Source of the DNA: Nemertoderma westbladi
Lineage: Eukaryota; Animalia; Xenacoelomorpha
Assembly: GCA_032718475.1 (NCBI GenBank)
Contig: JAUCBJ010002701.1
Coordinates: forward strand, 6,047-70,046
Length of the DNA stretch: 64,000 nt
Direction of reading: 5' to 3'
Below, one piece after another: positions 10,340 to 44,148 of the stretch (positions within the stretch are counted from its first letter, which is position 1; the number at the start of each line of letters is the position of its first letter). The notes beneath the pieces are model-generated. The model searched no databases, was not told where the DNA came from, and saw only the letters and a list, made by a program, of their open reading frames with translations. The position numbers and the translations under genes are program-made.

Positions 10340-10348
10340 CCGCTCCAA
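10340..10348 (-). other. Short, weak polypurine tract (TTGGAGCGG) abutting the 3' LTR
   Basis: Expected position; purine-rich but short. Confidence 0.4.
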
Positions 10349-10837
10349 GGGAAATCATACAATGTTTCCCTCCAATTGTAGAAGAGTATAAGGTGATGTA
10401 TACAAAACAAAATAAATTTCTTCCAACTAATCTAAATACTTGATACTATAAATCCTACTATTTACAAAATATTGCTATAGATATTGCATAATGAATTGCA
10501 TACAAATTAAATTTACAAAATATTATCTCTCTCATTGTTAACGATTATTACATACAAATTAAATTTACAAATATTGTTTCTCGTTCGTTCTTACTACATA
10601 ATGATTACTACATACAAAATCAAATATATATAAAAAATTTGCTAGGGCAAGTGAAAGGAGTAAGCCAAACCCGCAGGTTTGTCTCCCCAATCACTTCCTT
10701 CGCCTCTCTCATAATATAAATTCAAAACAACTCAACTAGTGTATATGAGTCTAGTCGAAGATTTCTAAATGCTACAATATACATCAGAGCGACGATGATG
10801 TATATATCTAGAGTCTGTCGCCCTGTGCTATAATGTA

Positions 10838-13800
10838 TTATCGACCCGCTCCTGGGTTCTTTGGGCTCGCTCCTCTCTTTCGCCCTCTTCCCAGATACAC
10901 CAATCGTCCTCCAGTCGACTCCATTGACGGCGTCCGTGAGGCGTCACTCCCCGGAACCGGCGACGACGTTCCCTGAGCCCCGACAGATTCTCGGCTTGTG
11001 CTTCTTCCTCGGCCTCGTCCCAATTGTCGTGCTCCTGTGGTCGCTTCCGCCAACTCTTCCTTATGCAGTTGCACGTGCGCTTTTTCCGACGCTCCCTGCG
11101 CCTTGCGCTGCAACCTTTGCGCTTCTATAATAGAATGATAGTGTTCGTCCTTGACTTGACGCTTGTCTTGGACCCCTCCTCCTGGTTCCTTCCGCGAGCC
11201 TTGAGCTCCAGCGGTCGTCGCTGTGGTCGCTGCGATCCTCTGTTCCTGTATCCTCTCAGCGGTCAATGAACCCACTGGCACATGAGTCAACAAGAATTCG
11301 TTGCGGTATTGTATAGCCGCCATCCTCCAATCACCTCGCGCGCGTACCACTTTTCTAGTCTCCGTAAATACACCCTTCGTGATGCGATCGCAAATAGCAA
11401 CGAAGTTCCAGGTGTACTTGTTATCCATATTCAATTGTCTGAAGTATTCTCGGACTACGATAACTCCAGTGTTCTGTGGAAGGTCTTGAGCAGTTAGGAT
11501 GAGTTCCTGATATTGTGGTAGCGATTGTAGATATGGCTCGTACGCAACATGTGATGGGTCTACCGCCCAAAACCCATATCCCGCCTTAAATGGTAACGAA
11601 CGCATCTGCGCTTGAATATGGTAATCAGCCACACTCTCCCACTTATCTAACATCTCCCGAAGTAAGTTAGCGCTATGGTTTTGAAAGGAATCATCTCGCA
11701 GCTGACATCTCGCGCTACGATGTCCCTTTACCCCACAATATCCACATTGAGAAATGAAGACGGTGCACGTGTGAAACGAATGGTCGGTCTCATTACACCA
11801 ACGACAGACCTTATGCGCTGCCTCTACTACCGCGTCGCACGACTTTAGATTGTGCCTTGTGCTGCCGCACAATTTGCACCTACGCGCTTGTGGAAACCAG
11901 GCCCTCTCGTATATGAGGTCTCCAATCGGTTTCGCACTTCCTTCCTTCCCAATGTCTAATACGATGTCGTCCTCTCCGGTCAACGGTTGTCGATCCGGAA
12001 CAAAGTAAACATCCTCGCCCTTGTCCTCTATCTCCAATATTTCCTCCCGCGTTCGTTTCGGATATGTCTTCTCCACCGGAAGATCTACTCCGAACACCTC
12101 TACTAACGTCTCCGGCCAACCCTCCTTAACAGGTCTATCAGCCTCCGAGTGGAAGGGAGTACCAAACCCGCGGGTTTGATTCCCGAACCACTTCTCCAAA
12201 GCTTCTGGCGTCGGATACTCCATCGACGGTCGGTCTCCCAAATCTCCGATGTTCTGTCGATATACTCCTTCGAATATCGCTAATCCTCTCCTAACCATCG
12301 ACATATTCTCTAACGATTGGTTGAAGAACGGGGTTAAGAAACGCTTCATCACGTCGGATTGGATTCCCCCTTTCGAGCGAACGTATTGATCTCCTCCGAA
12401 TACCAATGGATGACGCTTCAAAACTCGCGCAACGATATCCGCTAATAAACAAGTCACCGTGTTCGACTCAAGCACCAAATAATATTGTAGCGACGCACGG
12501 GGTGGCGCGCAAATGTTCCAATACACTAACGCTTGCCGCTTGAAGTGGGATTTGAACTCCGCTCCCGGTGGGGTGTTGTATTCGCCATACGCCTCCTCGT
12601 ACTTCTTCTGCGTCTTTAACTTAAAGTCCCAATTATACAACAAGTGTGCTATAAAGCCCATACCAGTCTTGGCAGAGTTGGGATACTCCCTATAAATTCC
12701 AATATCCTGTGCCCATAGCAACAATAGCTTGGTGTCGACAAACGGTCTTGGCAATCTATCTTCCAGATCAGTCATGGTGTTGAAGTCGCTCTCCAAATCG
12801 CTCTGGACTCCCGATCCCACCTTGACGTAATCTTGGTTGAGAATAGCCTCTCTAACTTTCTTGGGTAGCATCCTGGCGTCGATACGCTCCGCTCCGTGCA
12901 TACCTCCTCGCCTGCATACCTCCAAAATCTGCTCCCTAGGATCCTTCCCTTTCCGATATTGTGTCGTTATGATGGGCTCCGGTCTCTCTCGATCCGCCCT
13001 CACACGCATAAACACATGAGTCACACCATCGGCCGCACGAATTTGAATACACTTGCTGGTCAAACATTCCTGATGGGACCCTCCTTCATTGTCGTAGAAC
13101 ATCACCCTCCAATCCTGCAGTGATTCCTCCGTTTTCCTCCACTGACGCTGAATCTCGTCTGATGGGGTCCACATGCGCTCGATAGCCTTGTGGTCATCAT
13201 ATCGGGTATAAGAACCCTTCCTCCTCAGCCACGTCTGGTCTACCTCCTCGTCATCTGGGAATGTAGCCACCGCGACCCATACCTTGATGTACTTATCCAA
13301 CCATCCGAATAGTTTGCTCTCCTTCCCCGGAGCTCCAATCTTATCCAATGTGTCGTAATCTGTGATCTGCATTGGGACATCACGCAAGAACTTCGCGCAT
13401 AAAACTTCCCGTAGACAGTCAACGTTCCAATGATCCGCCATTCTTACCATCGGCAAGAATCGTATCGCTTCTCGCGACTCCGGATGATCTACTAATATCG
13501 CAGGTTCGGTGCCGTCGGAATAATACACCGGTCGGGGTTGAGATACGACCTGTGGAACAAATCCGGTCACTCTCCTCGTCTCCTCTTGATGTCTATCCGC
13601 GGTCTTATTATACTCCGCTATCCTGTTCTCAAATAACTCTTTCGCCTTCGCCGCTCGCTCCTCCTGCCGCAACGCGTCTATGTCGTCCTGATGCTCAGGC
13701 GTGAGGCTTCTCGCTCGGTGAGGTGAAGTAAACGCAGTCCAGGGACTCGAGAGCTCCAAACCCGCGGGTTTGGTACCCGAGTCCCGCGCCGCTTCGCGCC

Positions 13801-14545
13801 GCGCCTCTAGATCCTTGTAGGCTCGGTACAGCGAAATGGCCGCTGCCGTCTCTATCAAACTGGGTGTCGAACAGGGTTTAATCTCCATATACGGATCTAA
13901 TGTCGTAACGGTCGGCGTAATGGGTCTCGGAGGTCGCTTTCCGCTAAAGTCGATACTGATCATCGGGTTGCTCATCGGGTAACCTCCCTCGTTGTATCTA
14001 AGGAACTGGTGAGCTGGACATCGCGTTAATATCGGTTCCGGATGTTGCTCGTCTAATCGGTCGGGAATCGCCACGTCTTGCTTATTCATGCATTCACCAC
14101 ACTTGTAGAACAGCTTGTACACGCTGAAGACTTTCGGCGTCTCCTGATCCTCGCCTCGAGTCCTCCGGTATAGATGCATCCCGTCGAACTGATCTCGGAC
14201 TGCAGGTAGAGGTTCTTCGTGTCGTAAATACATATTCATATGGTACAGTCGTGCGATCTCCTCATCCGGATCTGCACTAATGTCACATACGTCCAAAGCG
14301 AAGTCGTAAGGATACCGCGTGCGATATTCTCTCCGCAAAACTTCCATCCGGTCCCCCAACGCTCTCATTCTTTCCCTCCGTAATTCCTTATCATAAGTCG
14401 GCTTATATTTTCCATTTAGCTCCATCACGGACCGCCCATGGTAGTAAACGTTAGAGTCTTTACATCCTGGTCGCGCGAATGGTAGCTCCGCCTCCTCTCT
14501 GGCAGTAAATCCTCTGCGCGGTTGCGCTCTAATATCCCTCTCCAT
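10838..14545 (-). CDS. BEL accessory ORF2, ~1235 aa, triple CCHC zinc-knuckle protein of unknown function
   Basis: Uninterrupted ORF with first ATG at 14545 (the track starts at TTG 14578). Knuckles CKLCGSTRHNLKSC, CRWCNETDHSFHTC and CGYCGVKGHRSARC lie at 11705-11878; basic RG-rich tail; no obvious signal peptide or TM helix. Confidence 0.9.
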   Translation of the reverse strand: MERDIRAQPRRGFTAREEAELPFARPGCKDSNVYYHGRSVMELNGKYKPTYDKELRRERMRALGDRMEVLRREYRTRYPYDFALDVCDISADPDEEIARLYHMNMYLRHEEPLPAVRDQFDGMHLYRRTRGEDQETPKVFSVYKLFYKCGECMNKQDVAIPDRLDEQHPEPILTRCPAHQFLRYNEGGYPMSNPMISIDFSGKRPPRPITPTVTTLDPYMEIKPCSTPSLIETAAAISLYRAYKDLEARREAARDSGTKPAGLELSSPWTAFTSPHRARSLTPEHQDDIDALRQEERAAKAKELFENRIAEYNKTADRHQEETRRVTGFVPQVVSQPRPVYYSDGTEPAILVDHPESREAIRFLPMVRMADHWNVDCLREVLCAKFLRDVPMQITDYDTLDKIGAPGKESKLFGWLDKYIKVWVAVATFPDDEEVDQTWLRRKGSYTRYDDHKAIERMWTPSDEIQRQWRKTEESLQDWRVMFYDNEGGSHQECLTSKCIQIRAADGVTHVFMRVRADRERPEPIITTQYRKGKDPREQILEVCRRGGMHGAERIDARMLPKKVREAILNQDYVKVGSGVQSDLESDFNTMTDLEDRLPRPFVDTKLLLLWAQDIGIYREYPNSAKTGMGFIAHLLYNWDFKLKTQKKYEEAYGEYNTPPGAEFKSHFKRQALVYWNICAPPRASLQYYLVLESNTVTCLLADIVARVLKRHPLVFGGDQYVRSKGGIQSDVMKRFLTPFFNQSLENMSMVRRGLAIFEGVYRQNIGDLGDRPSMEYPTPEALEKWFGNQTRGFGTPFHSEADRPVKEGWPETLVEVFGVDLPVEKTYPKRTREEILEIEDKGEDVYFVPDRQPLTGEDDIVLDIGKEGSAKPIGDLIYERAWFPQARRCKLCGSTRHNLKSCDAVVEAAHKVCRWCNETDHSFHTCTVFISQCGYCGVKGHRSARCQLRDDSFQNHSANLLREMLDKWESVADYHIQAQMRSLPFKAGYGFWAVDPSHVAYEPYLQSLPQYQELILTAQDLPQNTGVIVVREYFRQLNMDNKYTWNFVAICDRITKGVFTETRKVVRARGDWRMAAIQYRNEFLLTHVPVGSLTAERIQEQRIAATTATTAGAQGSRKEPGGGVQDKRQVKDEHYHSIIEAQRLQRKAQGASEKAHVQLHKEELAEATTGARQLGRGRGRSTSRESVGAQGTSSPVPGSDASRTPSMESTGGRLVYLGRGRKRGASPKNPGAGR

Positions 14546-15299
14546 TATGCCTCGCGTATATACATATATATATCCCAATAAGTGCCGTTACGTAACCAAT
14601 TACACTGTGGGTAAATCAGTTAGATGTCGCCGAAAGACAGACCTCCCGAACCCCCCCGCCTTCCAGCAGTTCAGGTTTGACTCTCTAGATCCCGTCTCTT
14701 CCTAACTAACTATCCTCTAACCTATTCCCATGCATAGCGCAAAAACTTTGGAGATAAACTGGCCGTGACCAACTCACTTTTTGATGCCCAAACTACTCCC
14801 ATTACTCGTACTAAACTACAGTAGTTAGAAAGGACCATAGCCACAATACCCAACTATACCAAACCCACAGGTTTGATAATCGAACATCACACATCCTGCA
14901 AACTACTGAGTGGGGTCCATGTACGCCTCTGGTGCTACTAACCTTTAGCACCTTAGTTGCACTGTTGGCACCAATCCGTGGAAGTTGCTAAACTCAATTT
15001 ACACTCCTACGTAATATAGCCGTCACCATGGTTTCTAAATGCTATTTTCCAGGCTTCACGACTTTTCAAATTACTGTTTTCTATAGACGAATTCTAAAAC
15101 GCGTCTATACACAGCGTCTGGAATTGTCTTGGGTTCACTTTTCTAATTTTAAAATTTTCTAATTTTCCAAAATTTTGAAATAAAATTTTGTTTTGATACC
15201 CACTAGACAAAACTCAACGCAAATCACCACAACCCCGCTCCTATGCATTTCCTTGTATTTGCATACGAGGAATGCATACGAAGTGAGTTGCGTCCAATA

Positions 15300-18200
15300 C
15301 TAATTCTGTTTTGAGACAGGAGACAAATTATAATCTCCCGTCTCGATACGTGTCTCCTCTAATAACACAATATCTTGGACCGGTCGGTCCAAGGTGTGCA
15401 AACCATTAGTTTTACACTTTTTTGGGTGCGGACACTTGCACCTAATTTTCACAGTGACTGTGCGCACTATGTTTTGCACGTCTGGGTGTGTGTGCAAGAT
15501 GACACCTGTCTCCCAATACTTTCTCTTGACAATCGGCTCGGTTATCAATACGTAATCTCCCCTTTGGAGACTCCGAACCGTTTTGTACCACTTTGTTCTG
15601 GTGGATATGGTGGGAAGATAATATTCCCGCCAATATTCCCAGAATGTGTACGCTACTAATTGTGTCACCTTCCAGCTTTTACGACTATATAGGTCGGCAC
15701 TAACGGGTTCTGATGCCGGCACAAGAAATGCTGGACTCTGCATTAACAAATGATTCGGCGTTAATGCAACACCGTCTGGCAACATAGCTATCGGCCTCGA
15801 GTTTAGGGTATGCTCGATTTCAATGAAAGCTGTAACCAGTTCGTCGTCGGTAAGTTGTTTATTTACAGGCAATGTTTTGGCAATGGCCTGTTTTACAGAG
15901 CGAACTAAACGCTCCCAACTTCCTCCTCTCCAAGGACTTTCTGGAGTATTAAATCTCCACTCTACTCTTTGCGGCAAAAGTGCTGCAGAAATTTCCTTAT
16001 TCTGTGCTGCTTTATGAGCCGCGTTTAACTCGCTGTTCCCTCCGACAAAGTTTGTACCCTTATCGGAGTAGAACGCCTTTACTAGTCCTCTCCTGGCCAT
16101 AAATCTCTTTAAGGCCAGGAGCAGAGATTTGGTCGACATGTCTGCCACACGCTCAATGTGTATAGCTCTACTAGCCATACATGTCAGTAGCAGACCCCAT
16201 CGCTTGTGGGTCAGCCATCCACTCTTTGCCTCAATCGGACCAAAACAGTCCACCCCTGTGTTCGTAAAGGGTGGGTCATATGCCTGCACTCTCGCTTCCG
16301 GGAGTTCAGCCATCTCCTGTTCCAATACTCTGGCGTTCACCCTCTTGCAAACCAGACAGGCGTCGTACATAGTGCCTACTGCCCTGATTGGCTGCAATAG
16401 AATGAATCGCTGTCTCGCTGCCGACAAACAGTGTAACTTTCCCGCGTGATGCAACCTCTTGTGTATATCCCATAGAATCGCTCTTTGCAATTCTATTGGG
16501 TGACTAGGGATTATCACTGGGAACCGAAACTGTGAGTTTATGTCGACAGTCTGGATTCTCGATCTATGACAAATCAAACCCTTATGGATTAATAGACTCC
16601 ATTTTCTAAGGGGTTTATAGAGAACTGGTCGTTGAGCCGATAATAGATGGAATTCTTTGGGGAAGGCACACATTTGATAATGCTTCAAATGCTTTAATTC
16701 CGCTTGATCAATCTCATCCTCTGTCAGAGGTTGTTTCAATTTCCGAATTCGCTCACTATTGGTGCTCAATGGTTCTCTCAAATGTTCCGAATGTTTTAAA
16801 CAAAGGTACAAAATGTATCGGCTTAACCACGCAGTTCTTTTACAAATTGTCAGCCAAGAGGCAGACGAATTTAGTAATTTGTCATAAACACTGCATGACA
16901 CTAATGCCAGCGACGGTTGTCCGCTAACTAATGGAAGTTTCGAATCCAAACCCGCAGGTTTGGAAACCAAAGGCTCCATTGTGTCGGTCATTTTCTGTCC
17001 GTCACTTACTAACTGTGACTGTCGTCTAGTCTGTAAGGGTGGTTTTATGTCATAACTTACCCTTCCGGACCTAGTAGTCACGTAAGTCTGTTGGTCTGAC
17101 AGGTCTCCGGGCCGCTCCAATGACTCTTCAGGCCGCTCCAATGACTCTTCAGGCCGCTCCAATGACTCTTCAGGCCGCTCCAATGACTTAAGTTTGGCTT
17201 TAGACTTCGACTTAGAGACTTTCTCCACTTTGACTTCTGCATCTTCAGGCATCGGATTGGTCACTATCTTTAGTCGCTCTGGCCAATGTTCCTGTGTCCT
17301 CGTTAGAAAATCAGGTCCATGCAACCAAAACTCCTGCGACTCTTCCTGACAGAATTCCGCCGGCATTGCACCTCTCGAAGTTATGTCGGCCGGGTTCAAC
17401 ACTCCCGGACAATGTCTCCATTGTTCCTTCGTCGAAAAATCAACGATCTGAGCGCGTCTATTGGCCACAAATGTCTTTAGTGCAATATTGTCGGCCGCAA
17501 TGTATACTAACACCAAGGATGCGTCCGTCCAATAGAATAAGGTCAGTGTCGTGTCTAACTCCTCAGTTATCTGCTTACTTACCTCGACCGAAACTACTGC
17601 CGCCTGTAACTCTGCACGAGGGACAGTCATGTATTTGACCGGCATTGTCTTTGATCTAGAAGTCACAAAGGCCGTCTCAAATTTGTCCTGACTTACCTCT
17701 CGGCGAAGGTAGGCTACCATACCAAAGCCGGTGTCACTTGCATCACTAAATAGGTGGAGCTCTAAATCAGCTGGGAATACCAGCTGATTCGGAAAGTAGG
17801 AACGGGGTACATCTATATTTTTCAATAGATGTAACTCGGCTTCCCACTCCCTCCACTGCTTTGCATGTATAGGAGATATTGGTTCGTCCCACTCTAAGTC
17901 GGACAACCAAATTTTCCTCATGCACGCTCGTGCCTGTAATATAACCGGACTGATAAAGTTCATCGGGTCAAATAGTCTACTTAATGTCGATAAGCAAATC
18001 CTCTTAGTCAAAACTTTGTCTGGGCTACTGGGCTCAAATCTAACTCTTACCTGGAACTTATCTGAGTTCGGGTTCCAAGCGAGTCCCAGTACTCGCGCCA
18101 TGGGGATTGGTTCTACCCCCAATTCTATGTCTCCGCTCCCGCGATCTTTCACCGGGAACGATTCTAATAGGGCCTCCGAGTTCGTAGTGAACTTGGTCAG

Positions 18201-21200
18201 AGGAAATCCCCCTGTAGCCAAGCACTCCTGCAGGCCGTGAGCCACTTCTATGGCTTGTTCCGCTGTGTCCTTGGACACCAATCCGTCGTCCATGTAGAAG
18301 TTTCTCAAGATGGACTCGATAACCTCTACTGGATACTTACCAATCTGGGCTGTTGCCGTTTTCTTTAAAACGAACAGCGTGCCATTCGGACTATCGCGGG
18401 CGCCAAATATCCTAACGTACATTTGGTATGTAACCACTGGGCCGGATAAGTCTTCATTCTCGTACCAGAGAAAGCGAAGGCTATCCTGGTCTGCCTTACA
18501 GGCTCTTACCTGGTGGAACATCGCCTCGATGTCACAAGTAAATGCGAATCGCCGCTGTCTAAAACGTAACAATATTCCAATCAAATAGTTATTCAGGTTG
18601 GGACCATCCATCAACTCTGAATTCAGGGACATACCCCTATAGACTGCTGCGCAGTCGTTGACTACTCGGACTTTGTCTGGCTTGTCGGGGTGAGTCACAT
18701 AGTGGTGTGGAAGGTAATAAGTCTGGTCTGTCACTAAGTCAGGGTCCTCTACCTTCCCAGCAAATCCCTTGGCGAAATAGTTGTTGATCTGGGCGCAATA
18801 CTTCTCCCTAATGTCTGGATTCTTCAACAACCGAGCCCTTACTCCGTTCAATCTTTTCAAGGCTAAGTTATAGTTGTTCTCCAACTTAGGTGGTTGTCGA
18901 CGCCACAACATTCCAACTTCAAAATGTCCAGTCGGTAGTAGACGTATGGTGTCTTCCATCATCTCCAACGACCGTTTCTCATCAGTAGACATGGCTAGGT
19001 CATATCCACCGGGTTCCATTGCGTCCCTATCCAGCCATTCGACGGTTCTGGCTCCTGTCTCGAGGTCCTGGCGTATCAATTCCTTCTGTAGTTCCTCCTC
19101 ACTGTATTGGAAAATGTCGAGGTCTCGATATTTAGCCACCTGACCCTCCACTATGTCGGTATAAGTCAAAACGTTAGTCAAATAGGTAGCGTGGGCCGCT
19201 GAACCAGACCCACGGGTCTGATAACAGTAGTCCTCGGGTTCACTATCTGTCCGGTCGTTATGAAGTGGTTCCGACAACCTAACATTATCGGGAATCAACT
19301 CCTCGTCCGACTCGCTAAAGTCACTATAGTGGTCAATACAGGTTCTCCTAAACTCGTCTATGTCTGGTGGTTCTACTAACGGTGGTTGAGTTATAGGCTG
19401 TAGTTCGTCGTATCTGTTCATTGGCTTGTCGCCACCTGTAAACTCATAAGACATGGGTACTCGTGTATACCAACCTAGTATGGTCCTATGGGCATGTGGT
19501 CCATTGACATGCGGCTCAGCTGGTCTCGTTTCCCATATTTGGTGTGCGATCAGCTGTTCTGCACCAATCAACATAGAAACATTCCTATAACCTACCTGGT
19601 GTCTGGGTATCCTGAGCTTGTCAAAATACTCCTGTGCTATGGGACTCATCGGCGGCACCTTACCTAACTGCCTGCCGAATCCCTTCATAGCTAGACACTT
19701 AAATCCGTCCAATGGCAAAGCTTTCCGTTCTTGTCGAGTGTGTTGGTCTCTCGGAAGTAGGGAGTCTAGTTCTACAGATATCCTGTGTCCCTTGAGGTCA
19801 CCTACCCCGTGCATAGACTTCAACTCTATTTGGATCTCCTCGGCGTCCTGGAAGCTAGAAACGGCTCTCACCACTTCCTCGTCGATATACGATAATGTGG
19901 ACGCAGTGTCCAACATCACATATATCCGCTTCGATCCCTTATCGCCAGTGAGTTTCACCGGAATCACGCTGAATATTTCCGACGTGGCCGATGATAAATA
20001 CGTCCGCGCGCTGGTCGATGAACTATCCGCGGTGAAACCTTGGCAGGTCACTTCTCTCGCGCTCGACTCGCCATCCTCATCCGACGAACCTGGTTGGTAA
20101 CCATCGTCCTGGATGCCAGTGTACGTATTCCTCCTTATCGATACGGGTTCTTTGCTCCCCTTCCTGTGAGGATTTCGCTGTAAGTAATGGTCCGTTGGGG
20201 TATGGAAATCCGCATGTAGCAACTTGTGATGTAGTCTGCCGCATTCCATGCATCCGTCCTTGCTGTTTGGGCACTGCCGCCGTACATGACCTGGCGCAAG
20301 ACAAGCCCAACAGGTGTCCAACGTCCGCACTTGAACTCTTCTTTGTTCCGAATTTAATTCTTTGAACCGTCTGCAACTATCTAACTTATGGTCGTCAGAT
20401 CTTACCTCCTTTAGTAAACAGTATTGGCAACCTACAAATCCATCCGGCAACTCCTGTTGCTTTAACCTAGGTCTATCTAACCGCTCACCTGACCATACTC
20501 GCGAGTCTGATCTAAAGGCTGGGGTACTCGAATTATATCTGTCTACTGAGTTAAATGTCACAGTAGTCCTGTCATCGTCAAAACTTACCATAGACTTACC
20601 GGTAACAGGTTTAGACTCCCTCATATTCTCTTCTGAGAAGTTTGATTTCATCTCTGCTACTGCGTCTGTGGCTATCATGTCATGAATATGCTGAAGTGTC
20701 AATACTTTACCTTGGCTCTCCAACTTATTCTCTAATTTGCGCCATTTCTGTCGATAACGCATGTTTAAACGTCTTATTACGCTCTTTAAAACTTCGGCGT
20801 GATCACCATGATGAGGTAGATTCACCGTCCTCAAGATGTCCAATGCGTTCGAAATAGCGTTCGCTAAGTTCAACAGCTCTAACGGAGTTGTAATCCTTCC
20901 GCCCTTACCCAAGTCTTCTACTATCGACTGCGCCATCTTGGTTTTATTCCCGTAGATGTCACTAAGCGTCTTCATCGCTAACTCAAATGCCCTTTCATTG
21001 CCGACGAAGTTATCAGCAATGGCTCTAGGTTCTCGATGGTGCATCTGAAGCAAATAGTTGAACTTCTCGTTGGGAGTAAAGGTGCTGTTGGTTAGCTGCT
21101 CGTCGACATAGGTTTTGAAAGTCCTCCAATGCTTATGGTTGCCCATAAACTTCTGGGGTTGTTGCGTCGGCAGTCCTTGCCTAGCAGCAAACTTACCTAT

Positions 21201-23675
21201 GTCCCTAAGGGTTGCGTCGTTCCGGGTTAACAAATGGTTTAGTTCCGCAGGGTTGTTAAGTCTGGTCCTTTCCCGGTGGTTCCAACTTACCTGCTCCGCG
21301 TCCGTCCTTCTTTCCTTATAGTTTCGGGACTTCTGACGTCTCATGTCTTCCTCTTCATCGCTTGACTCGGTGTCAGTCCTTAGCGCTCGCGATGGTTTGC
21401 GCGCCGAGGCCCTGATCCAAGCCTCCTCAATAAATTTCTCGGCCGAATTTTCGAAATTGGGATTATGGATATTCGGGACAGGCGTCCTTACCTGAGGTCT
21501 ATGTGGTATAGTCTCCTCCGATATGCGTACTCGTTGACTATGCTGGACTTTATCTAACTCAGGCCTGCTAGGATTAGAATTACTTCTTACCTGGGCTGCT
21601 TCCTTTAACCGTAGGTTGCTAAGCATGTCCGTTATAGGTTGGATGTGCGGCGATATAGCTTGCGCTAAACTAGCACTTAACTCATCCCTCGTAATAAATT
21701 CCTGGCTAGGGTTCTGTTGTATAGTCGGCTCTATCTGAGTAATCATCCGCTGTCTCTCATATGATCCCTCTTCCGGTTTAACCCGGAAGTTCTCCGTCGA
21801 ACTGGGTCGGCGCTCCGTCCGCGTATTCCAAACCCGCGGGTTCGGTTCGCCCAATACTCGGCCCGTTGGAGTCTCTTCTCTAAATTCTCCATTGTCGCGT
21901 TCGGTATACAGTGGTGCGGTGTTCCGATGACGTAGATCCTGGGCGATGGGTGAAGCACCAATACCAACTGGCGTGCGATATGTAGAGAACGGTTTAGCGA
22001 TCCGTGTACTCGTAATAGCTGGACCGGGTATAGGAATTCTGGTCGTCGTCGACTCGCGTATGGTCGGAGTTCTCGCTTCCTGTTCGGCCTTCTGCAGTGC
22101 GAACAGTTCTCGCAACTCGGTCCCTACACTCGCCCCACATTCTTCGATCATCCGCATCCCCTTCTCGGCGATTTCATTCGCCTTCCTAGTCCGTTCTTCG
22201 CTCTCTAAACTTAATCTCGCACTTTCCAACTGTGCCAGTTTACGTTCTTCTTCTTCCCTCGCTCGTCGTGCTGCGCTCTCTTCTTCCACTCGCGCCTTCT
22301 CTTCATATAATGCGCGTCTTCTTTTCTCGATCTCGAGTTCGCGTTCCTTGCGCTCGCGTTCGAGTTGAAGCTCGCGTTCCTTCTGTTCCCGCTCGAGTTC
22401 CTTGCGCTCGCGTTCGGCTTGAAGCTCGAGTTCCTTGCGCTCGCGTTCGGCTTGAAGCTCGCGCTCCTTGCGCTCGCGTTCGGCTTGAAGCTCGCGCTCC
22501 CTTTGCTCACGTTCCGCCCGTTCGCGCTTACTTATTTCTTCCAACTCTCGCAACTCCGCATCCAACTTTCGCGTGCGCTCGCGTTCCCGCTCGGCTTCCT
22601 TCCGTGCTTCCGATGCACGCAAAACTTCCGCCTGTTGTTCGTCCAGTCGGCGTCTTCTCTCCTCCGCCGAGTTGTGCGAAACAAGGGATCTAGCACATAT
22701 AACCTTACCTCGCGCGTGACTAACCTGGGAATCGCCGCTGTCTCTGGATGCGTCGTCGGGTGGAGTCAACGTCCTCTGTTGGATGTTCTCCGTCGTCGGT
22801 AGCACCTGGCCTGGTACCACCACTCCATTCTGCATCAGCCAGCTAGTAACTTCCCTTTGATACCGGCGCTCCTCTTTATCTTGGATCTCTTCTCGCTTCA
22901 CTAAGTCTCTCAACTCTGCGTCACTCACTTGAGTCGCCTGCGTTTGTGATGCCCATAGCAGCCAGTTCTCCGTCCTAACTCGTCGGAATCGCTCCGATAA
23001 CTCGCGGTGCTCCAACAAGGCTGCTAAAACCCTGTCGTAAATCCTCGTCGCCACGTCGCTCGACTGAGACTCTACTGCCTTCTTCGCTAGGACTGCAAGC
23101 TCCTCCGTCTGCTTGAATAACGCTGAGTTATATCCTCTTCTAATCTCTGCTAACTCTACCCTCCCGATGTTCGCTGAGTCGGCTAACATTTTCCTTACCT
23201 TGTCCGCCGTCCGGGTTATATGTCCGGCATGCGCGCGAAGTTTCTTCTTTATCGCAATATCAAGTTCTCTCTCGCTTACCTGACTTACACTTGGTGGACT
23301 TGAAGGATTATTTCGGGAACTACGGGTACTCCTTACAGCCGTCGGGACCACGGCACTTACCATACCCACAGGTCTGGAAACCGGGCTCCGGGCTCTCGCT
23401 TCTGCTACACTACCCTCCCTATCACTCACCTCTGTCCGGGCTGCCGTACAGTCCTTCCTTACAGTAGCGGTAGGGGATCCTAATACTATTACTTGAGGTT
23501 GTTCTTCTTCCTCACTAGTCACTGTCTCGTCCTCCTGTTCACTTACGTCAGCGTCACTCGCTGCGTCGTCATAGTCGGCATTGTCGTCAACAGTTATGTT
23601 TACGCTATCGTCAGTCGGCGGTCCAGCCGCCGTCTCGTAGCTGTCCTCTAGTGCCTCCTTGTCTGAGACACTCAT
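15300..23675 (-). CDS. BEL/Pao Gag-Pol polyprotein, 2791 aa
   Basis: Gag core (FMGNHKHWRTF..EKFNYL) and BEL-type triple Cys/His boxes ending CMECGRLHHKLLH; protease LDTAS; RT YLPHH/FYMDD; RNase H LFSDAS/PRAEL/WTD/NPAD; integrase HHCC, VDCFGP, SDKGTNF, GGSWERLV; C-terminal FWEYWREYYL. Confidence 0.98.
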   Translation of the reverse strand: MSVSDKEALEDSYETAAGPPTDDSVNITVDDNADYDDAASDADVSEQEDETVTSEEEEQPQVIVLGSPTATVRKDCTAARTEVSDREGSVAEARARSPVSRPVGMVSAVVPTAVRSTRSSRNNPSSPPSVSQVSERELDIAIKKKLRAHAGHITRTADKVRKMLADSANIGRVELAEIRRGYNSALFKQTEELAVLAKKAVESQSSDVATRIYDRVLAALLEHRELSERFRRVRTENWLLWASQTQATQVSDAELRDLVKREEIQDKEERRYQREVTSWLMQNGVVVPGQVLPTTENIQQRTLTPPDDASRDSGDSQVSHARGKVICARSLVSHNSAEERRRRLDEQQAEVLRASEARKEAERERERTRKLDAELRELEEISKRERAEREQRERELQAERERKERELQAERERKELELQAERERKELEREQKERELQLERERKERELEIEKRRRALYEEKARVEEESAARRAREEEERKLAQLESARLSLESEERTRKANEIAEKGMRMIEECGASVGTELRELFALQKAEQEARTPTIRESTTTRIPIPGPAITSTRIAKPFSTYRTPVGIGASPIAQDLRHRNTAPLYTERDNGEFREETPTGRVLGEPNPRVWNTRTERRPSSTENFRVKPEEGSYERQRMITQIEPTIQQNPSQEFITRDELSASLAQAISPHIQPITDMLSNLRLKEAAQVRSNSNPSRPELDKVQHSQRVRISEETIPHRPQVRTPVPNIHNPNFENSAEKFIEEAWIRASARKPSRALRTDTESSDEEEDMRRQKSRNYKERRTDAEQVSWNHRERTRLNNPAELNHLLTRNDATLRDIGKFAARQGLPTQQPQKFMGNHKHWRTFKTYVDEQLTNSTFTPNEKFNYLLQMHHREPRAIADNFVGNERAFELAMKTLSDIYGNKTKMAQSIVEDLGKGGRITTPLELLNLANAISNALDILRTVNLPHHGDHAEVLKSVIRRLNMRYRQKWRKLENKLESQGKVLTLQHIHDMIATDAVAEMKSNFSEENMRESKPVTGKSMVSFDDDRTTVTFNSVDRYNSSTPAFRSDSRVWSGERLDRPRLKQQELPDGFVGCQYCLLKEVRSDDHKLDSCRRFKELNSEQRRVQVRTLDTCWACLAPGHVRRQCPNSKDGCMECGRLHHKLLHADFHTPTDHYLQRNPHRKGSKEPVSIRRNTYTGIQDDGYQPGSSDEDGESSAREVTCQGFTADSSSTSARTYLSSATSEIFSVIPVKLTGDKGSKRIYVMLDTASTLSYIDEEVVRAVSSFQDAEEIQIELKSMHGVGDLKGHRISVELDSLLPRDQHTRQERKALPLDGFKCLAMKGFGRQLGKVPPMSPIAQEYFDKLRIPRHQVGYRNVSMLIGAEQLIAHQIWETRPAEPHVNGPHAHRTILGWYTRVPMSYEFTGGDKPMNRYDELQPITQPPLVEPPDIDEFRRTCIDHYSDFSESDEELIPDNVRLSEPLHNDRTDSEPEDYCYQTRGSGSAAHATYLTNVLTYTDIVEGQVAKYRDLDIFQYSEEELQKELIRQDLETGARTVEWLDRDAMEPGGYDLAMSTDEKRSLEMMEDTIRLLPTGHFEVGMLWRRQPPKLENNYNLALKRLNGVRARLLKNPDIREKYCAQINNYFAKGFAGKVEDPDLVTDQTYYLPHHYVTHPDKPDKVRVVNDCAAVYRGMSLNSELMDGPNLNNYLIGILLRFRQRRFAFTCDIEAMFHQVRACKADQDSLRFLWYENEDLSGPVVTYQMYVRIFGARDSPNGTLFVLKKTATAQIGKYPVEVIESILRNFYMDDGLVSKDTAEQAIEVAHGLQECLATGGFPLTKFTTNSEALLESFPVKDRGSGDIELGVEPIPMARVLGLAWNPNSDKFQVRVRFEPSSPDKVLTKRICLSTLSRLFDPMNFISPVILQARACMRKIWLSDLEWDEPISPIHAKQWREWEAELHLLKNIDVPRSYFPNQLVFPADLELHLFSDASDTGFGMVAYLRREVSQDKFETAFVTSRSKTMPVKYMTVPRAELQAAVVSVEVSKQITEELDTTLTLFYWTDASLVLVYIAADNIALKTFVANRRAQIVDFSTKEQWRHCPGVLNPADITSRGAMPAEFCQEESQEFWLHGPDFLTRTQEHWPERLKIVTNPMPEDAEVKVEKVSKSKSKAKLKSLERPEESLERPEESLERPEESLERPGDLSDQQTYVTTRSGRVSYDIKPPLQTRRQSQLVSDGQKMTDTMEPLVSKPAGLDSKLPLVSGQPSLALVSCSVYDKLLNSSASWLTICKRTAWLSRYILYLCLKHSEHLREPLSTNSERIRKLKQPLTEDEIDQAELKHLKHYQMCAFPKEFHLLSAQRPVLYKPLRKWSLLIHKGLICHRSRIQTVDINSQFRFPVIIPSHPIELQRAILWDIHKRLHHAGKLHCLSAARQRFILLQPIRAVGTMYDACLVCKRVNARVLEQEMAELPEARVQAYDPPFTNTGVDCFGPIEAKSGWLTHKRWGLLLTCMASRAIHIERVADMSTKSLLLALKRFMARRGLVKAFYSDKGTNFVGGNSELNAAHKAAQNKEISAALLPQRVEWRFNTPESPWRGGSWERLVRSVKQAIAKTLPVNKQLTDDELVTAFIEIEHTLNSRPIAMLPDGVALTPNHLLMQSPAFLVPASEPVSADLYSRKSWKVTQLVAYTFWEYWREYYLPTISTRTKWYKTVRSLQRGDYVLITEPIVKRKYWETGVILHTHPDVQNIVRTVTVKIRCKCPHPKKCKTNGLHTLDRPVQDIVLLEETRIETGDYNLSPVSKQN
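17110..17188. repeat. In-frame 21-bp tandem repeat (LERPEES x~4) in the RH-IN linker
   Basis: Tandem GGCCGCTCCAATGACTCTTCA. Confidence 0.9.
22335..22500. repeat. In-frame ~33-bp repeats (ERERKERELQA) in the Gag coiled coil
   Basis: Repeated CCTTGCGCTCGCGTTCGGCTTGAAGCTCG. Confidence 0.85.
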
Positions 23676-24858
23676 AGTCTAAATAATGTTTTGCTTTCCG
23701 GCAAAATATATCTCGCAAAGTTCGAGATATAATTATAATTTAACCGAAAATACGGTCAAATTATTTGTCTAATAATCAGTTAGTCCAAATGTCAAAATAA
23801 ATTCGCAATGCAATATTGTGAATTTAATGGGGTATATAGTTATAGCAAATACTAGCAGAATATTTAAACAAAAATATTATTATTTAGCTACTATATAGCA
23901 TTAAATACCGGTATGACACAAAATAACTTTGAATCTAATACAAAATATTCAAAATATACTTGCCGCCCGAATATTTCTAATTTCATATATATATAGCTCT
24001 AATCAACGTAATTTTAATTTCAAATATTATATGTATCCACTAGCGCGTGGCTACATCTTCGGGTTGCGACTCTCTCTAACTCTCTCTCTAACTTGAGCGA
24101 TTCAAAAAACCATGGCCGGCTAAACCTAAATATCCTAACTAATAAATTGAGTTCAGCTTCGCAGTTAAACAACCGATAATTTTTTACTGCTTCCACAAAC
24201 ACACTGGCGCCAACAGAACAACTAACCTTGTTTGCTGTGAGATTCCACATCCGCGTCCAAAGATTCAGGCCCTTCGCTGATTGCAAACCGAACCCGCAGA
24301 CCCACACGAACCCCAAACTCAGAAGTTCCGTCTTGCCATGTATCTCCAGATGGTATAAAATAACTAAGCGGTTACCTAACATACCGGTACAAAACTCTAG
24401 AATTTTACAAATAATTTTGACCGAAACTGAATTCTCGCAAACCTAGCTAATAATTTTCAAAAAACTTACTAATTACAGTTTGCCCTAAGGCCTAAGGAAC
24501 TGCTGTATTCGCAATTAGCAAAAACGCACTACCGTACATTCACTGTATGCAGTACAGTAAGTAAAACAGTACACCAACTTAACAGCCTAATGATACTGTG
24601 TGTGGTACGGCAAAACAAATGTCCCTTCTACCGTACGCAGTAACAGCAATCAGCCTAATGTACTACTGTACTATTGTACGCAGCCAGTGAATACAGTAAT
24701 CTAAACTAACAGCCTAAAAATACACTATGTGTTCTACCGTACGCTAGCCTATAGCCTACAGCAGACGATCACGTGCTCCAACTTATTACTTAATACTGTG
24801 ATACTACTAATCAGCCTAAGAATACTCTATTACTGTACGCTACAGCCTACAGCAACAA

Positions 24859-24870
24859 TGCGCGTATTAC
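24859..24870 (-). other. Non-tRNA primer-binding-site position (GTAATACGCGCA), complementary to an LTR 12-mer
   Basis: Directly follows the 5' LTR and lacks TGG; perfect inverted repeat with 25940-25951 (and 9211-9222). Confidence 0.6.
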
Positions 24871-27059
24871 TGATAAACAACCGCGACCTCTATACTAACA
24901 GCAGAACTGTTGAACAGACAAATACCCGTTAATATCCTTCTGTCAACCTAATAAGTTCTCGTCTAACCAATAAGACACAAAGACTGCTCTACTGTTAAGT
25001 AAAGGGGATCAGGAGCGTGCTATTACTAAATTGTAAGGGTTGCTAAATACAAAACCGCTACTTACCTTTGGATGGCGCTAATCTGCCGTCCGCTAATATA
25101 TTTTACTAAATTTACACAACTCCTGCAAAATCGCTTGTTCCTTTCTCTACCGATTGCTCGATAGAGAGCTAACTGTTCGAATCTATGAGCCACGCGGGAA
25201 TAACCAAAACAATAAACCCGAGTCGGCTCCCTAAGCTTACTTAAGACGAGTGCGAGAGGCCTTGCACTCAGAGTATTCTTACGCCTAATTCTATCACTAT
25301 TAAAACACGCTATTGTCTACGTCTTTTCTAATCGCGAATACTGGGGGTTCTCTAACGTAATGTGTGAATGCGAGAATATTTAAATAATCAAATGATACAG
25401 TAATTGTTTCTACGTGGATAGTACCGCTCTGGGTCTAAACTTGCCTGCCGCTGGCTTTAGGCCAGCAAATTACTAGCGTATTGTGCGTACCGAATAGTGC
25501 GATCTAGCTGATTGCCCGCTAATGCAAATAACCGCTCAGCGTGGATTGTTTACAGTACTCTAATTATTACCTTAGCTACTCTCCGCTATGCTGCGTACTA
25601 ATTCTTAATTTTTTACTAATCAATTACAGTCACAAATATTTAACAGCGTACTAATTACTAAGAGTTCCAGAATGCGTAATTCTAATTTATCACGCAACAG
25701 GTTTCACTAGTAATAGCCTAAATTGCCGTATTACTTTGACCTAATCAGTAACTAATTGTTGTAACTAAGAAATAGAAATCAATCAAAGAGAAAAGGGCGC
25801 CTACCTAAACATTCACAATCATAGGCACACTTCAGTAACACACCAATCAGCGTCAACAATCACAGTTCGCAATTATGCAGTTAACTACTGTATGGCCCAC
25901 AATTATGCGACTCACTATTCGTACTCCACACTCAACGTTGTAATACGCGCAGGCCTCTCCCGGATACATCTAGGTTTCCTAACTAACCCGATTCCTGCCC
26001 CCCTAATACTAAATAGAGACAAAACCTGGATCATCAGCCCCCTAGTTACTGTATCGGCGAATGGTCTGCGTGTTACAGTGCAATTGCCCGCCCACAACGG
26101 TGACTCCCCGCCAGCGTTGCCCGTCTTTGAATCCTCCGCTTTCCCTTAGTCGCTCAACCCCCCGATGTGCCCACCGCCCACTGGCACCTTAGCCCTCCAT
26201 TATGCTAATAGCTACCGTAGCGGCGCATGCAAATCACAAAGTCTGACAGTCTCAGAAATCCCTTAGGATTATTGCGCAGAAAGGAATCACATAGAACCAT
26301 TAATCAAAAGGTAGAAATCATAGTAATTAGCAGTAATCGAAGGAATTAATTGAGAAACACAATCAAGAGTAATCGCACTAGCAAATCATTTCAAGAAATT
26401 AATCAAAATTAGCAAAATTGCAGAAAATACGCTAAAATATCCGTCAAAAGTGAATAGAGACAGCTCAGCAAGTACAAAGGTGATAGCAGTAAGGCTCTAC
26501 CGGCACACCGCCAATTTATAGGTGATCCGGATGGGGTGATGCAATAGGGTGACGCAATCGCTCTCCTATTGGCTCTCCAGTCCGCGCTAGCATTAGACCA
26601 ACCTGGAAGCAGTTAGTCCAATAAGGAGGCCGGATTGTAGCCCTATTGCCTGCCCAAACCTCAAATTATTACCATATATGGTAATGGATCATGTCCCTGG
26701 CTGCTGAATGGCCAGGACAGCGTCCCTATATGCTAGCCCTATCGATGCTAATATCAGCAAGCACAAAATCCAGGGTCCGACTAAACTTGCTACCCTGGAA
26801 CTATCTACATATATCCTAATACAAAATTACGTAGGTAGGGCTACATACTATACAAAATGGATGGATTCAAAATATATGGGCGTTTCGATTTCCCTATCTA
26901 AATATCATTACGTTATTATGCCTTATCTAAATATTATGCTGCATAACGGACTAATATTACATACAGTATAACGGACTAATATTGTGTACAGTATAACGAC
27001 TAATATTGCATACTGCATAATGACTAATATATGTGGATACAGCGCCATATACCGTAACA
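24871..27059 (-). repeat. 5' LTR (2189 bp)
   Basis: Direct repeat of 8142-10339. Confidence 0.97.
26487..26625 (-). promoter_or_regulatory. Candidate LTR Pol II promoter
   Basis: TATAAAT at 26520-26514, Inr-like TTACT with A at 26490 (30 nt downstream), and CCAAT boxes near 26570 and 26620. Confidence 0.5.
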
Positions 27060-30000
27060 GATATATTTATATCCATTGCATCGATTTGATTTATATATAA
27101 ATGACGTGCATTGTCGTGTTTTGTCTTGCCTTGTCTAACTGCCTAGCCTCCTTTATTTGGGATGGATATATTTATATCCATTGCATCGATTTGATTTATA
27201 TATAAATGATGTGCATTGTCGTGTTTTGTCTTGCCTTGTCTAACTGCCTAGCCTCCTTTATTTTGGATGGATATATTTATATCCATTGCATCGATTTGAT
27301 TTATATATAAATGACGTGCATTGTCGTGTTTTGTCTTGCCTTGTCTAACTGCCTAGCCTCCTTTATTTGGGATGGATATATTTATATCCATTGCATCGAT
27401 TTGATTTATATATAAATGATGTGCATTGTCGTGTTTTGTCTTGCCTTGTCTAACTGCCTAGCCTCCTTTATTTGGGATGGATATATTTATATCCATTGCA
27501 TCGATTTGATTTATATATAAATGACGTGCATTGTCGTGTTTTGTCTAGCCTTGTTTAACTGCCTAGCCTTCTTTATTTGGGATGGATATATTTATATCCA
27601 TTGCATCGATTTGATTTATATATAAATGACGTGCATTGTCGTGTTTTGTCTAGCCTTGTTTAACTGCCTAGCCTTCTTTATTTGGGATGGATATATTTAT
27701 ATCCATTGCATCGATTTGATTTATATATAAATGACGTGCATTGTCGTGTTTTGTCTAGCCTTGTTTAACTGCCTAGCCTCCTTTATTTTGGATGGATATA
27801 TTTATATCCATTGCATCGATTTGATTTATGTATAAATGACGTGCATTGTCGTGTTTTGTCTTGCCTTGTTTAACTGCCTAGCCTCCTTTATTTGGGATGG
27901 ATATATTTATATCCATTGCATCGATTTGATTTATATATATAAATGACGTGCATTGTCGTGTTTTGTCTTGCCTTGTTTAACTGCCTAGCCTCCTTTATTT
28001 TGGATAGATATATTTATATCCATTGCATCGATTTGATTTATATATAAATGACGTGCATTGTCGTGTTTTGTCTTGCCTTGTCTAACTGCCTAGCCTCCTT
28101 TATTTGGGATGGATATATTTATATCCATTGCATCGATTTGATTTATATATAAATGACGTGCATTGTCGTGTTTTGTCTTGCCTTGTCTAACTACCTAGCC
28201 TCCTTTATTTGGGATGGATATATTTATATCCATTGCATCGATTTGATTTATATATAAATGACGTGCATTGTCATGTTTTGTCTAGCCTTGTCTAACTGCC
28301 TAGCCTCCTTTATTTGGGATGGATATATTTATATCCATTGCATCGATTTGATTTATATATAAATGACGTGCATTGTCGTGTTTTGTCTTGCCTTGTCTAA
28401 CTGCCTAGCCTCCTTTATTTGGGATGGATATATTTATATCCATTGCATCGATTTGATTTATGTATAAATGACGTGCATTGTCGTGTTTTGTCTTGCCTTG
28501 TTTAACTGCCTAGCCTCCTTTATTTTGGATGGATATATTTATATCCATTGCATCGATTTGATTTATATATAAATGACGTGCATTGTCGTGTTTTGTCTTG
28601 CCTTGTCTAACTGCCTAGCCTCCTTTATTTGGGATGGATATATTTATATCCATTGCATCGATTTGATTTATATATAAATGACGTGCATTGTCGTGTTTTG
28701 TCTTGCCTTGTCTAACTGCCTAGCCTCCTTTATTTGGGATGGATATATTTATATCCATTGCATCGATTTGATTTATATATAAATGACGTGCATTGTCGTG
28801 TTTTGTCTTGCCTTGTCTAACTGCCTAGCCTCCTTTATTTGGGATGGATATATTTATATCCATTGCATCGATTTGATTTATATATAAATGACGTGCATTG
28901 TCGTGTTTTGTCTTGCCTTGTCTAACTACCTAGCCTCCTTTATTTGGGATGGATATATTTATATCCATTGCATCGATTTGATTTATATATAAATGACGTG
29001 CATTGTCATGTTTTGTCTAGCCTTGTCTAACTGCCTAGCCTCCTTTATTTGGGATGGATATATTTATATCCATTGCATCGATTTGATTTATATATAAATG
29101 ACGTGCATTGTCGTGTTTTGTCTTGCCTTGTCTAACTGCCTAGCCTCCTTTATTTGGGATGGATATATTTATATCCATTGCATCGATTTGATTTATATAT
29201 AAATGACGTGCATTGTCGTGTTTTGTCTTGCCTTGTCTAACTGCCTAGCCTTCTTTATTTGGGATGGATATATTTATATCCATTGCATCGATTTGATTTA
29301 TGTATAAATGACGTGCATTGTCGTGTTTTGTCTAGCCTTGTTTAACTGCCTAGCCTTCTTTATTTGGGATGGATATATTTTTTCCATTGCATCGATTTGA
29401 TTTATATATAAATGACGTGCATTGTCGTGTTTTGTCTAGCCTTGTTTAACTGCCTAGCCTTCTTTATTTGGGATGGATATATTTTTTCCATTGCATCGAT
29501 TTGATTTATATATAAATGACGTGCATTGTCGTGTTTTGTCTTGCCTTGTCTAACTACCTAGCCTCCTTTATTTGGGATGGATATATTTATATCCATTGCA
29601 TCGATTTGATTTATATATAAATGACGTGCATTGTCGTGTTTTGTCTTGCCTTGTCTAATTGCCTAGCCTTCTTTATTTGGGATGGATATATTTATATCCA
29701 GTGCATCGATTTGATTTATATATAAATGACGTGCATTGTCGTGTTTTGTCTTGCCTTGTCTAACTACCTAGCCTCCTTTATTTGGGATGGATATATTTAT
29801 ATCCAGTGCATCGATTTGATTTATATATAAATGACGTGCATTGTCGTGTTTTGTCTTGCCTTGTTTAACTGCCTAGCCTCCTTTATTTGGGATGGATATA
29901 TTTATATCCATTGCATCGATTTGATTTATATATAAATGACGTGCATTGTCGTGTTTTGTCTTGCCTTGTCTAACTGCCTAGCCTCCTTTATTTGGGATGG

Positions 30001-42740: not shown

Positions 42741-43356
42741 CCATTCAAATATATAATAATTTAATTAAATAAATAAAAATTATAAATGAAATAAATTAAT
42801 AAATAATAATTGAAATAAATAAATAAATAATAATTGATATAAATAAATAAATAAATAAATAAAATGAATAAATAAATAATTGAAATAAAGATATAAAATA
42901 TGTTGTAGTTATCTTCATTAATCATATTTTGTTGTCTTTTTCCAACATTATAATTTGTTTGACGTTTGAATTGAATTTTAGGGTACCTGTTTCTGATAAA
43001 AAGTAAAAAAAAAATAATTTTTTTAACTGATTCTGGATCACCATTTAATCGCGATTTCACAACTAAAATCGAAATTGCAAGATCTCTTTTAGTACTCGAG
43101 TTATAGCTGATGCCTGTCTGTCAAAATCCGACAAAATTAATAATCCCACGCATTGTACAGTTTTCGCTATAAGATTTTGAAGTGAAATTTCATTTCTAAT
43201 GTATGTTTAAATGTACATAATAGTAAAATTTATTAGAGACTTACTGAACTATTAGTTTACATTACTCAGTATTCAATAATGAATTGAGTCCAGTAAAAGT
43301 TTTATTTTATACTTTTGGAATTTGAACTTTAATGAAGGAGCAGAATAATTGATATC

Positions 43357-44135: not shown

Positions 44136-44148
44136 GTGAGTACCGGTA

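Follow-up and report, generated by a model that had tools for sequence, protein, structure and literature searches.

A BEL/Pao retrotransposon of Nemertoderma westbladi with a candidate self-priming site complementary to its own long terminal repeat

Results

The candidate primer-binding site and its complement

A stretch of 64,000 nt from contig JAUCBJ010002701.1 of Nemertoderma westbladi (hereafter the window, whose positions serve as coordinates throughout) carries a BEL/Pao retrotransposon with long terminal repeats (LTRs), which measures 18.9 kb and reads on the minus strand from 27059 to 8142. Its 5' LTR (24871..27059, minus strand, 2189 nt) and 3' LTR (8142..10339, minus strand, 2198 nt) both begin with TGTT and end with ATCA. 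They form a repeat of 98.96% and, with 15 substitutions and one 9-nt indel between them in the LTR-LTR alignment, are 99.3% alike; from this divergence of 0.7% the insertion can be regarded as young. A 5-bp target site duplication, GATAT, lies at 27060..27064 on the plus strand with its other copy at 8137-8141, and because this duplication and the alignment fix the ends of the LTRs, these can be taken as exact. Two open reading frames (ORFs) lie between the LTRs, both on the minus strand. ORF1 (15300..23678, 2792 codons open) is gag-pol, with DUF1759, a protease carrying LDTAS, a reverse transcriptase (RT) carrying YMDD, Peptidase_A17/RNase H, an integrase and DUF5641. In ORF2 (10838..14587, 1249 codons open), a region with an EXD2/RNase D-like 3'-5' exonuclease fold at about aa 480-720 is followed by three CCHC knuckles at aa 904-961.

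The candidate primer-binding site (PBS) is the 12 nt adjoining the 5' LTR, GTAATACGCGCA (24859..24870, minus strand). The initial annotation of this DNA had reported that the site lacks a TGG, that its exact complement is present in both LTRs and that the duplex ends precisely at the LTR boundary, and all three statements hold. The first TGG after the 5' LTR is found at +91. The complement occupies LTR nt 1109-1120 (25940..25951, minus strand), which we regard as the candidate self-primer, and would form a duplex of -18.1 kcal/mol; an identical 12-mer is present in the 3' LTR (9211..9222, minus strand). The PBS 12-mer begins at offset 0 from the LTR end, with the pairing breaking off on both sides. 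A search for GTAATACGCGCA and its complement with up to one mismatch returned only three matches (24870-24859, 25951-25940 and 9222-9211), against 0.11 expected. The observation of a 12-nt LTR complement at a PBS without TGG is therefore confirmed, and release of a primer from this position would be predicted to require cleavage after LTR nt 1120, between 25940 and 25939. Among 40 listed variants, beside which 315 more exist, none falls inside either 12-mer.

The chance of a 12-nt match was 1.8-2.4e-4 per position under Markov models of orders 0 to 3, and 1.1-1.5e-3 when six offsets were permitted. A 12-nt complement to the LTR is reached at just two of 14531 internal positions, neither more than 55 nt from the LTR end, the second being the leader arm of another helix described below, and an equally stable duplex was obtained in none of 300 LTR shuffles. 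When contiguous and spliced matches were both allowed, at any of ten offsets, two of 300 random coding positions matched equally well. Given a scan across many windows, the 12-mer match on its own is suggestive without being decisive. A primer formed across a splice junction was also considered for this element and rejected, the best spliced match being 9 nt (equalled at 36 of 200 random positions) against 12 nt for the contiguous one.

ARAGORN found no tRNA genes in the window and no Rfam matches were obtained within 8000-27200 at E up to 1, and there is therefore no sign of a tRNA-like primer encoded by the element. Such a primer has been attributed to Cer7 of C. elegans, which a literature search did not confirm. 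When self-priming is recognised by an LTR complement of at least 10 nt, placed 0-5 nt past the 5' LTR in the absence of a tRNA site, this element shows 12 nt at offset 0.

Self-complementarity in distant BEL/Pao families

Related loci were collected by alignment of the RT region. Of the 93 loci, 13 come from host DNA that sits in prokaryote bins, and the other 80 are the best among at least 576 in metagenomes; most of the 93 are short, and the metagenome contigs may mix copies. The first 13 (L001-L013) are animal BEL/Pao loci inside contigs of GTDB bacterial genome bins, probably as host DNA contamination. We scored 22 rows, representing 19 families as judged by tree and LTR identity; the other loci had no definable LTR end or were duplicates of a family. 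The 3' end of each LTR was set from the point at which the repeat diverges, by hand for L013, L025 and L066, and it is uncertain for L059. Complements were scored both as contiguous and as GT-AG-spliced sequence, with 300 random coding positions as the null.

A perfect complement of 10-15 nt between LTR and PBS was found in 15 of the 19 families, which stand at about 40% RT identity, and each was equalled by at most 5 of the 300 random positions. The complement starts 0-5 nt past the LTR in 14 of these 15 families and at 9 in one. It is contiguous in four (L007, L045, L066 and L093), while in the other eleven it exists only across a splice junction, namely in L044/052 and, with a length of 11-15 nt, in L003/004, L008, L013/024, L020, L026, L025, L039/046, L053, L063 and L082. 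Donors in the spliced families are mostly GTAAG or GTGAG, acceptors are pyrimidine-rich and the predicted introns span 76-536 nt. Between the sister families L045 and L066 the letters differ on both strands of the duplex. The letters of the PBS vary among families, and it is therefore the pairing that is kept and not the sequence. AATAAA or ATTAAA is located 0-97 nt past the primer end in 13 of the 15 families, which is the order required if the R region starts at the cut.

One family presents both states of the intron. L052:123-672 has a 536-nt GT-AG intron within the candidate primer, and L044:6909-6950, in a 3' LTR of the same family that is 98.5% alike upstream, has the joined form, with intron loss precise to the base. 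In DNA, this pair shows the intron to be real and its loss to be one way in which a contiguous primer can come about. A blind scan for LTR ends at 10 further loci, carried out without a null and left out of the counts above, gave plausible splice-junction primers in L036, L054, L080, L085 and L072/076, ambiguous results in L011, L038 and L084, and nothing in L059. Judged by sequence, the related BEL/Pao families offer a strong case for self-priming. The Nemertoderma element is of the contiguous type and has the same order of TATA, primer, LTR end and PBS; it departs from the pattern in the distance between primer and LTR end and in its poly(A) signal.

Promoter, leader and folding context

The TATA box noted in the initial annotation is real and is the only TATAAA in the LTR (26515..26520, minus strand; LTR nt 540), with a CCAAT at nt 488. 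It sits 569 nt upstream of the candidate primer and transcription is predicted to start near 26490. The initial annotation had raised this distance of about 540 nt as a caveat, and it is now weakened: a TATA-like hexamer lies 50-238 nt upstream of the exon end or the start of the primer in four scored rows (two families), so that an internal primer looks normal for the group. A GC-rich stretch just upstream of the primer (25960..26260, minus strand), with two GGGCGG boxes at LTR nt 881 and 967, could be a possible second promoter without TATA.

The leader runs from 24870 to 23679 on the minus strand, 1195 nt up to the first ATG of ORF1, and its 3' part is very AT-rich. It contributes to a second LTR-leader helix, in which an exact 12-mer of the LTR (25270..25281, minus strand; LTR nt 1779-1790) pairs with leader positions +43 to +54 (24817..24828, minus strand). 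This helix flanks the PBS and grows to 20 bp with bulges, at -23.5 kcal/mol. Such extra helices are weakly above chance, the best 24-nt duplex being equalled in one of 60 shuffles. A simple inverted duplication of LTR and leader was ruled out, the paired segments not lying on one anti-diagonal. At 24835-24817 (minus strand), 37 nt past the LTR end, the boundary letters CA recur and are followed by GTAATA, running into the arm of the second helix; this is possibly the relic of a second PBS-like unit in degenerate leader repeats. A candidate intron of 74 nt is located near the LTR end (24992..25065, minus strand), with a consensus donor at LTR nt 1995 and a pyrimidine-rich acceptor at nt 2068. 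Its joint is not complementary to the PBS; its size and place are those of the primer-forming introns of three related families.

Classification of the element

The pol region is of the BEL/Pao type, as indicated by Peptidase_A17 (E 6e-39), DUF1759, DUF5641 and the protease, RT, RNase H and integrase motifs in that order. PF05380 is present in all top pol homologues, and the best named matches, at about 40% identity, come from corals, molluscs, sea urchins and a tunicate. The TG...CA ends and the target duplication also agree with BEL/Pao LTRs. An 18-nt PBS for the 3' end of a host tRNA, a further trait of the group, is not seen, with the first TGG at +91. The assignment by pol nevertheless stands, because the tRNA PBS is a descriptive trait and 17 of the 19 related families are likewise without a TGG-type site as their best reading. 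Membership of the Tf1/sushi group is ruled out, since the pol is BEL/Pao and not that of a Ty3/gypsy chromovirus. Two scans of viral contigs revealed no relative. The named clades of BEL/Pao are Sailor, Suzu, Sinbad, BEL, Pao, Tas, Dan and Flow.

FastTree placed the element in a group of 25 rows together with both TGG families (L042 and L069), L039 and arthropod rows, and a mixture-model tree left it in an open fork. Its placement with a 17-row clade that holds most of the self-complementary families was not rejected (p-AU 0.45), this group having been picked after inspection of the tree.

The second open reading frame

No direct Pfam match was obtained for ORF2. Five homologues, distant and unnamed, were found among 1.84 billion representatives, and when ORF2 and these five were combined into a profile, it matched human EXD2 at E 4.6e-5 as well as CCHC knuckles. 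P0186 aligned to ORF2 across the exonuclease-fold region at E 2e-13. In the ESM Atlas, which we treat as a lead only, the ten best family-bearing matches all fall into the same family or clan as the top one, PF01612 (score 0.88). That ORF2 is an env gene can be ruled out, given the lack of a Pfam match and the matches to exonuclease and knuckles instead. In local alignment the second and third catalytic motifs (D and Y-x-x-x-E) are present; the first D-x-E of the homologues faces non-acidic residues, with another D-x-E about 17 residues upstream, and for this reason nuclease activity is uncertain. A structure model of ORF2 had a predicted local distance difference test score of 38.5, too low for use. 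ORF2-like sequence was present in none of the 93 related loci, many of them on short contigs and the self-complementary families among them, which suggests that self-priming does not need ORF2.

Other features of the element and its surroundings

The N-terminus of ORF1 is long, acidic and coiled-coil-like, with short internal repeats. A short and imperfect purine tract precedes the 3' LTR (10340..10347, minus strand), together with a small inverted repeat (10340-10375); the tract is weak in comparison with the clear G-rich tract of the relatives. In a separate sequencing run a contig departs from the reference at the inner LTR edge, with its loose end at 24870. Sequence of the element was found in DNA contigs of one organism from three studies, where it is abundant and varied, and one run taken as RNA yielded 20 scattered contigs that carry no information on ends or strand.

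The element inserted into an array of a 105-bp satellite, which is now split into 4449-8141 (about 35 copies) and 27060-35081 (about 76 copies). Further tandem arrays in the window have units of 37, 63, 45, 38 and 14 bp. Among neighbouring genes, an ORF at 43336-44139 (plus strand) is an exon of a rhodopsin-type G protein-coupled receptor whose best solved relative is neuropeptide FF receptor 2 (E 9e-12), and two ORFs on the minus strand (54389-56818 and 40173-40928) encode non-LTR reverse transcriptases.

Discussion

A probable self-derived primer and its alternatives

The position, length and exactness of the LTR complement suggest that the element primes reverse transcription with its own sequence, and we consider it likely that it does so in one of two ways, through a cut by RNase H or through trimming of a 3' end. 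Of the two, the former is the one we favour: the PBS probably binds a piece of the element's own RNA, cut out as a primer in the manner of Tf1, except that the primer would be internal, with release by RNase H after nt 1120. The RNA would start upstream of nt 1109, near the TATA box at nt 540 or in the GC-rich stretch, and nt 1109-1120 would pair with the PBS of the same RNA or of a packaged partner, assisted by nucleocapsid chaperoning. Cleavage by the element's RNase H after nt 1120, as in Tf1, would create a 3' end that coincides exactly with the LTR edge, from which the RT could copy about 1070 nt back to the cut. The cut would then be the start of R, and the DNA would jump to the R of the 3' end, for which the poly(A) site must be downstream of nt 1120. 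It is also conceivable that the contiguous 12-mer is a fossil splice joint, of the sort that the relatives still make by removal of an intron.

The proposal of the initial annotation that a BEL element might self-prime gains from the 12-nt match and, more strongly, from the 15 families in which different letters preserve the complement; for covariation at the site itself close relatives would be required, and none were found. A number of points weigh against our interpretation. A single 12-mer at p of about 1e-3 could arise by chance in a large scan. The best RT-RNase H identity in two protein searches was 41-42%, short fragments aside; no row exceeds 44% identity to the element, whose long branch takes no settled place in the trees. 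Because of this branch and placement, the families are evidence by analogy rather than by demonstrated inheritance. Four of the 19 families fail to show the complement: L042 and L069 carry TGG sites (called from the TGG alone), L009 has 8 nt, or a spliced 11-mer with one mismatch, and L059 is the fourth. Between primer end and LTR end lie 1069 nt, compared with 44-203 nt in the 15 self-complementary families, and AATAAA and ATTAAA are absent from the whole LTR, the candidate poly(A) signals being weaker variants 248-837 nt downstream of the primer. Folding adds a further difficulty. For an RNA ending just past the PBS, nested folding gives the primer helix a mean probability of 0.98; with 100-300 nt of leader this falls to 0.01 or less and the crossing second helix is preferred. 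Both helices can form together only as a pseudoknot, for which a rough sum that ignores loop costs gives -356.8 versus -344.6 kcal/mol from nt 1109 and -518.4 versus -518.1 from nt 570. The case for self-priming in this element appears good on the sequence, weakened by the odd geometry and the lack of close kin. The initial annotation had missed how unusually far the primer lies from the LTR end, that a canonical poly(A) signal is absent, that relatives form the complement across splice junctions and that ORF2 resembles an exonuclease.

Other explanations of the 12-mer must be weighed against cleavage by RNase H. The match could be fortuitous, in which case priming would fall to a host RNA that has no CCA end, be it a tRNA fragment or another small RNA, or to a mechanism in which the 12-mer plays no part. 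The p value of about 1e-3 with offsets, in a scan of many windows, and a geometry unlike that of the relatives would both be compatible with this, as would the presence of both TGG-type families in the same 25-row FastTree group and the use of half-tRNA primers in Ty1/copia elements (PMC6317226). We nevertheless consider it unlikely. Self-complements in 15 of the 17 non-TGG families raise the prior for function, the match starts exactly at the LTR edge, and in L039/046, the family that the tree path puts nearest, a splice junction yields a complement of 14 nt. A half-tRNA with its end near position 39-40 would also place the invariant anticodon-loop U after a pyrimidine, which misfits the register of the 12-mer. 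The pairing might instead be real and serve structure, in packaging, dimerisation or a switch with the second helix, while priming occurs otherwise. Several long-range helices join LTR and leader, the second of them beating the first in nested folding, and in fungal GalEa elements a conserved hairpin of unknown role stands in for the PBS (PMC5445492). This seems to us improbable, as the duplex stops at the edge of the LTR in this element and only 0-5 nt away in 14 of 15 families, a placement required of a primer and not of a packaging helix; moreover, no other source of a primer is evident and the extra helices scarcely exceed the level seen in shuffles.

A primer of the element's own sequence might also derive from another RNA end, if a short LTR transcript or the 3' copy of R paired with the PBS and a 3'-5' exonuclease, for which ORF2 is a possible candidate, removed the unpaired tail at its 3' end as far as nt 1120. 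The 3' LTR contains the 12-mer as well, the ORF2 profile and the ESM Atlas lead point to an EXD2-like or PF01612 exonuclease with knuckles, and DEDDy enzymes are known to process the 3' ends of structured RNA (PMC5408684). We rate this as rather unlikely. No ORF2-like sequence accompanies the related loci within the contigs available, the first acidic motif of ORF2 is doubtful, and the account of bdelloid DEDDy ORF3s in PMC5408684 states, in the parts concerned with them, no link to priming. In the intron-bearing relatives a spliced 3' copy would presumably cost the progeny its intron, which favours a 5' source. A role of ORF2 in trimming for primer maturation is thus attractive and unsupported. 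A bolder scheme can be built on it, in which a large branch of BEL/Pao self-primes, usually by means of a primer built by the spliceosome, and this giant is an intron-less descendant whose own zinc-knuckle 3'-5' exonuclease trims an LTR-derived RNA to the 12-bp duplex, without tRNA, splicing or RNase H cleavage; we think it quite unlikely. Cleavage by RNase H accordingly remains our preferred, if provisional, explanation.

Comparison with known systems

In its general organisation the element resembles the Belpaoviridae (genus Semotivirus) of the international virus-taxonomy committee (ICTV), with which it shares the order Gag, protease, RT, RNase H and integrase, the Pao peptidase, DUF1759 and DUF5641, TG...CA LTRs, a 5-bp duplication and matches in animals (PMC8742986). 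According to the ICTV description, genomes measure 4.2-10 kb and LTRs 0.2-1.2 kb, and an 18-nt PBS fits tRNA-Arg or tRNA-Gly (PMC8742986). The present element, in contrast, spans 18.9 kb with LTRs of 2.2 kb, lacks a tRNA site and has, in place of env, an extra ORF that is exonuclease-like. The ICTV profile describes priming of BEL/Pao elements by tRNA and calls the replication of these elements poorly understood (PMC8742986); a BEL/Pao-type element with a tRNA-Tyr site is on record (PMC4580426), and the main text of PMC3118150 makes no mention of primer, PBS or tRNA.

For ORF2 the closest parallels are in other lineages. The Juno and Vesta elements of bdelloid rotifers have an ORF3 downstream of pol that encodes a DEDDy exonuclease of the RNase D/EXD type, as ORF2 appears to do, although they belong to other LTR lineages (PMC5408684). 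Compared with those proteins ORF2 has 1249 codons, three knuckles, five distant homologues and an uncertain active site. Trypanosome RNase D, which trims the tails of guide RNAs, combines a DEDD domain with CCHC fingers, a pairing of nuclease and fingers like that of ORF2 (PMC9181182).

As regards priming, the element is most like Tf1 and Tf2 of Schizosaccharomyces pombe, Tj1 of S. japonicus and the Tf1/sushi and Tcn1 groups of Ty3/gypsy, which are described as having no tRNA site and a PBS of 11-12 nt at the LTR edge that is complementary to their own LTR. Lin and Levin (1997, 1998) reportedly found that RNA structure of U5 and leader around the PBS supports self-priming of Tf1. The superfamily differs, however, and so does the place of the primer, which in Tf1 is the first 11 nt of the RNA; here an internal position is predicted, as much as about 540 nt past the start, and R-U5 would be about 1070 nt. 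Many relatives of this element, unlike Tf1, form the primer only across a splice junction. In Tf1, RNase H has been demonstrated to cleave between bases 11 and 12 (PMC7175516, PMC4600332), whereas cleavage here is a prediction. The plant Ty1/copia elements of the TAR lineage (Houba, Osr-1) belong to another superfamily and to hosts of another kingdom; their self-priming is likewise a prediction, made from an LTR complement of at least 10 nt located 0-5 nt past the LTR, a description that the present element fits (PMC6317226).

Self-priming has been proven only for Tf1 and is predicted for some gypsy and copia groups. In the full-text literature, a scope that leaves most subscription papers, Repbase, GyDB and supplements to one side, we found it only for Ty3/gypsy and Ty1/copia, and nothing on self-priming or splice-built primers in BEL/Pao. 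If our interpretation is correct, a third LTR superfamily self-primes, apparently in many families from aquatic-animal samples, and does so with an internal primer. In the relatives splicing would switch reverse transcription on, and the intron must then survive in the 3' LTR copy; one family (L044/L052) shows both intron states in DNA. Self-priming would also explain the failure of PBS searches in such elements and provide a simple rule for their annotation. The model predicts an RNA whose 5' end falls on LTR nt 1121 and strong-stop DNA that carries the 12-mer.
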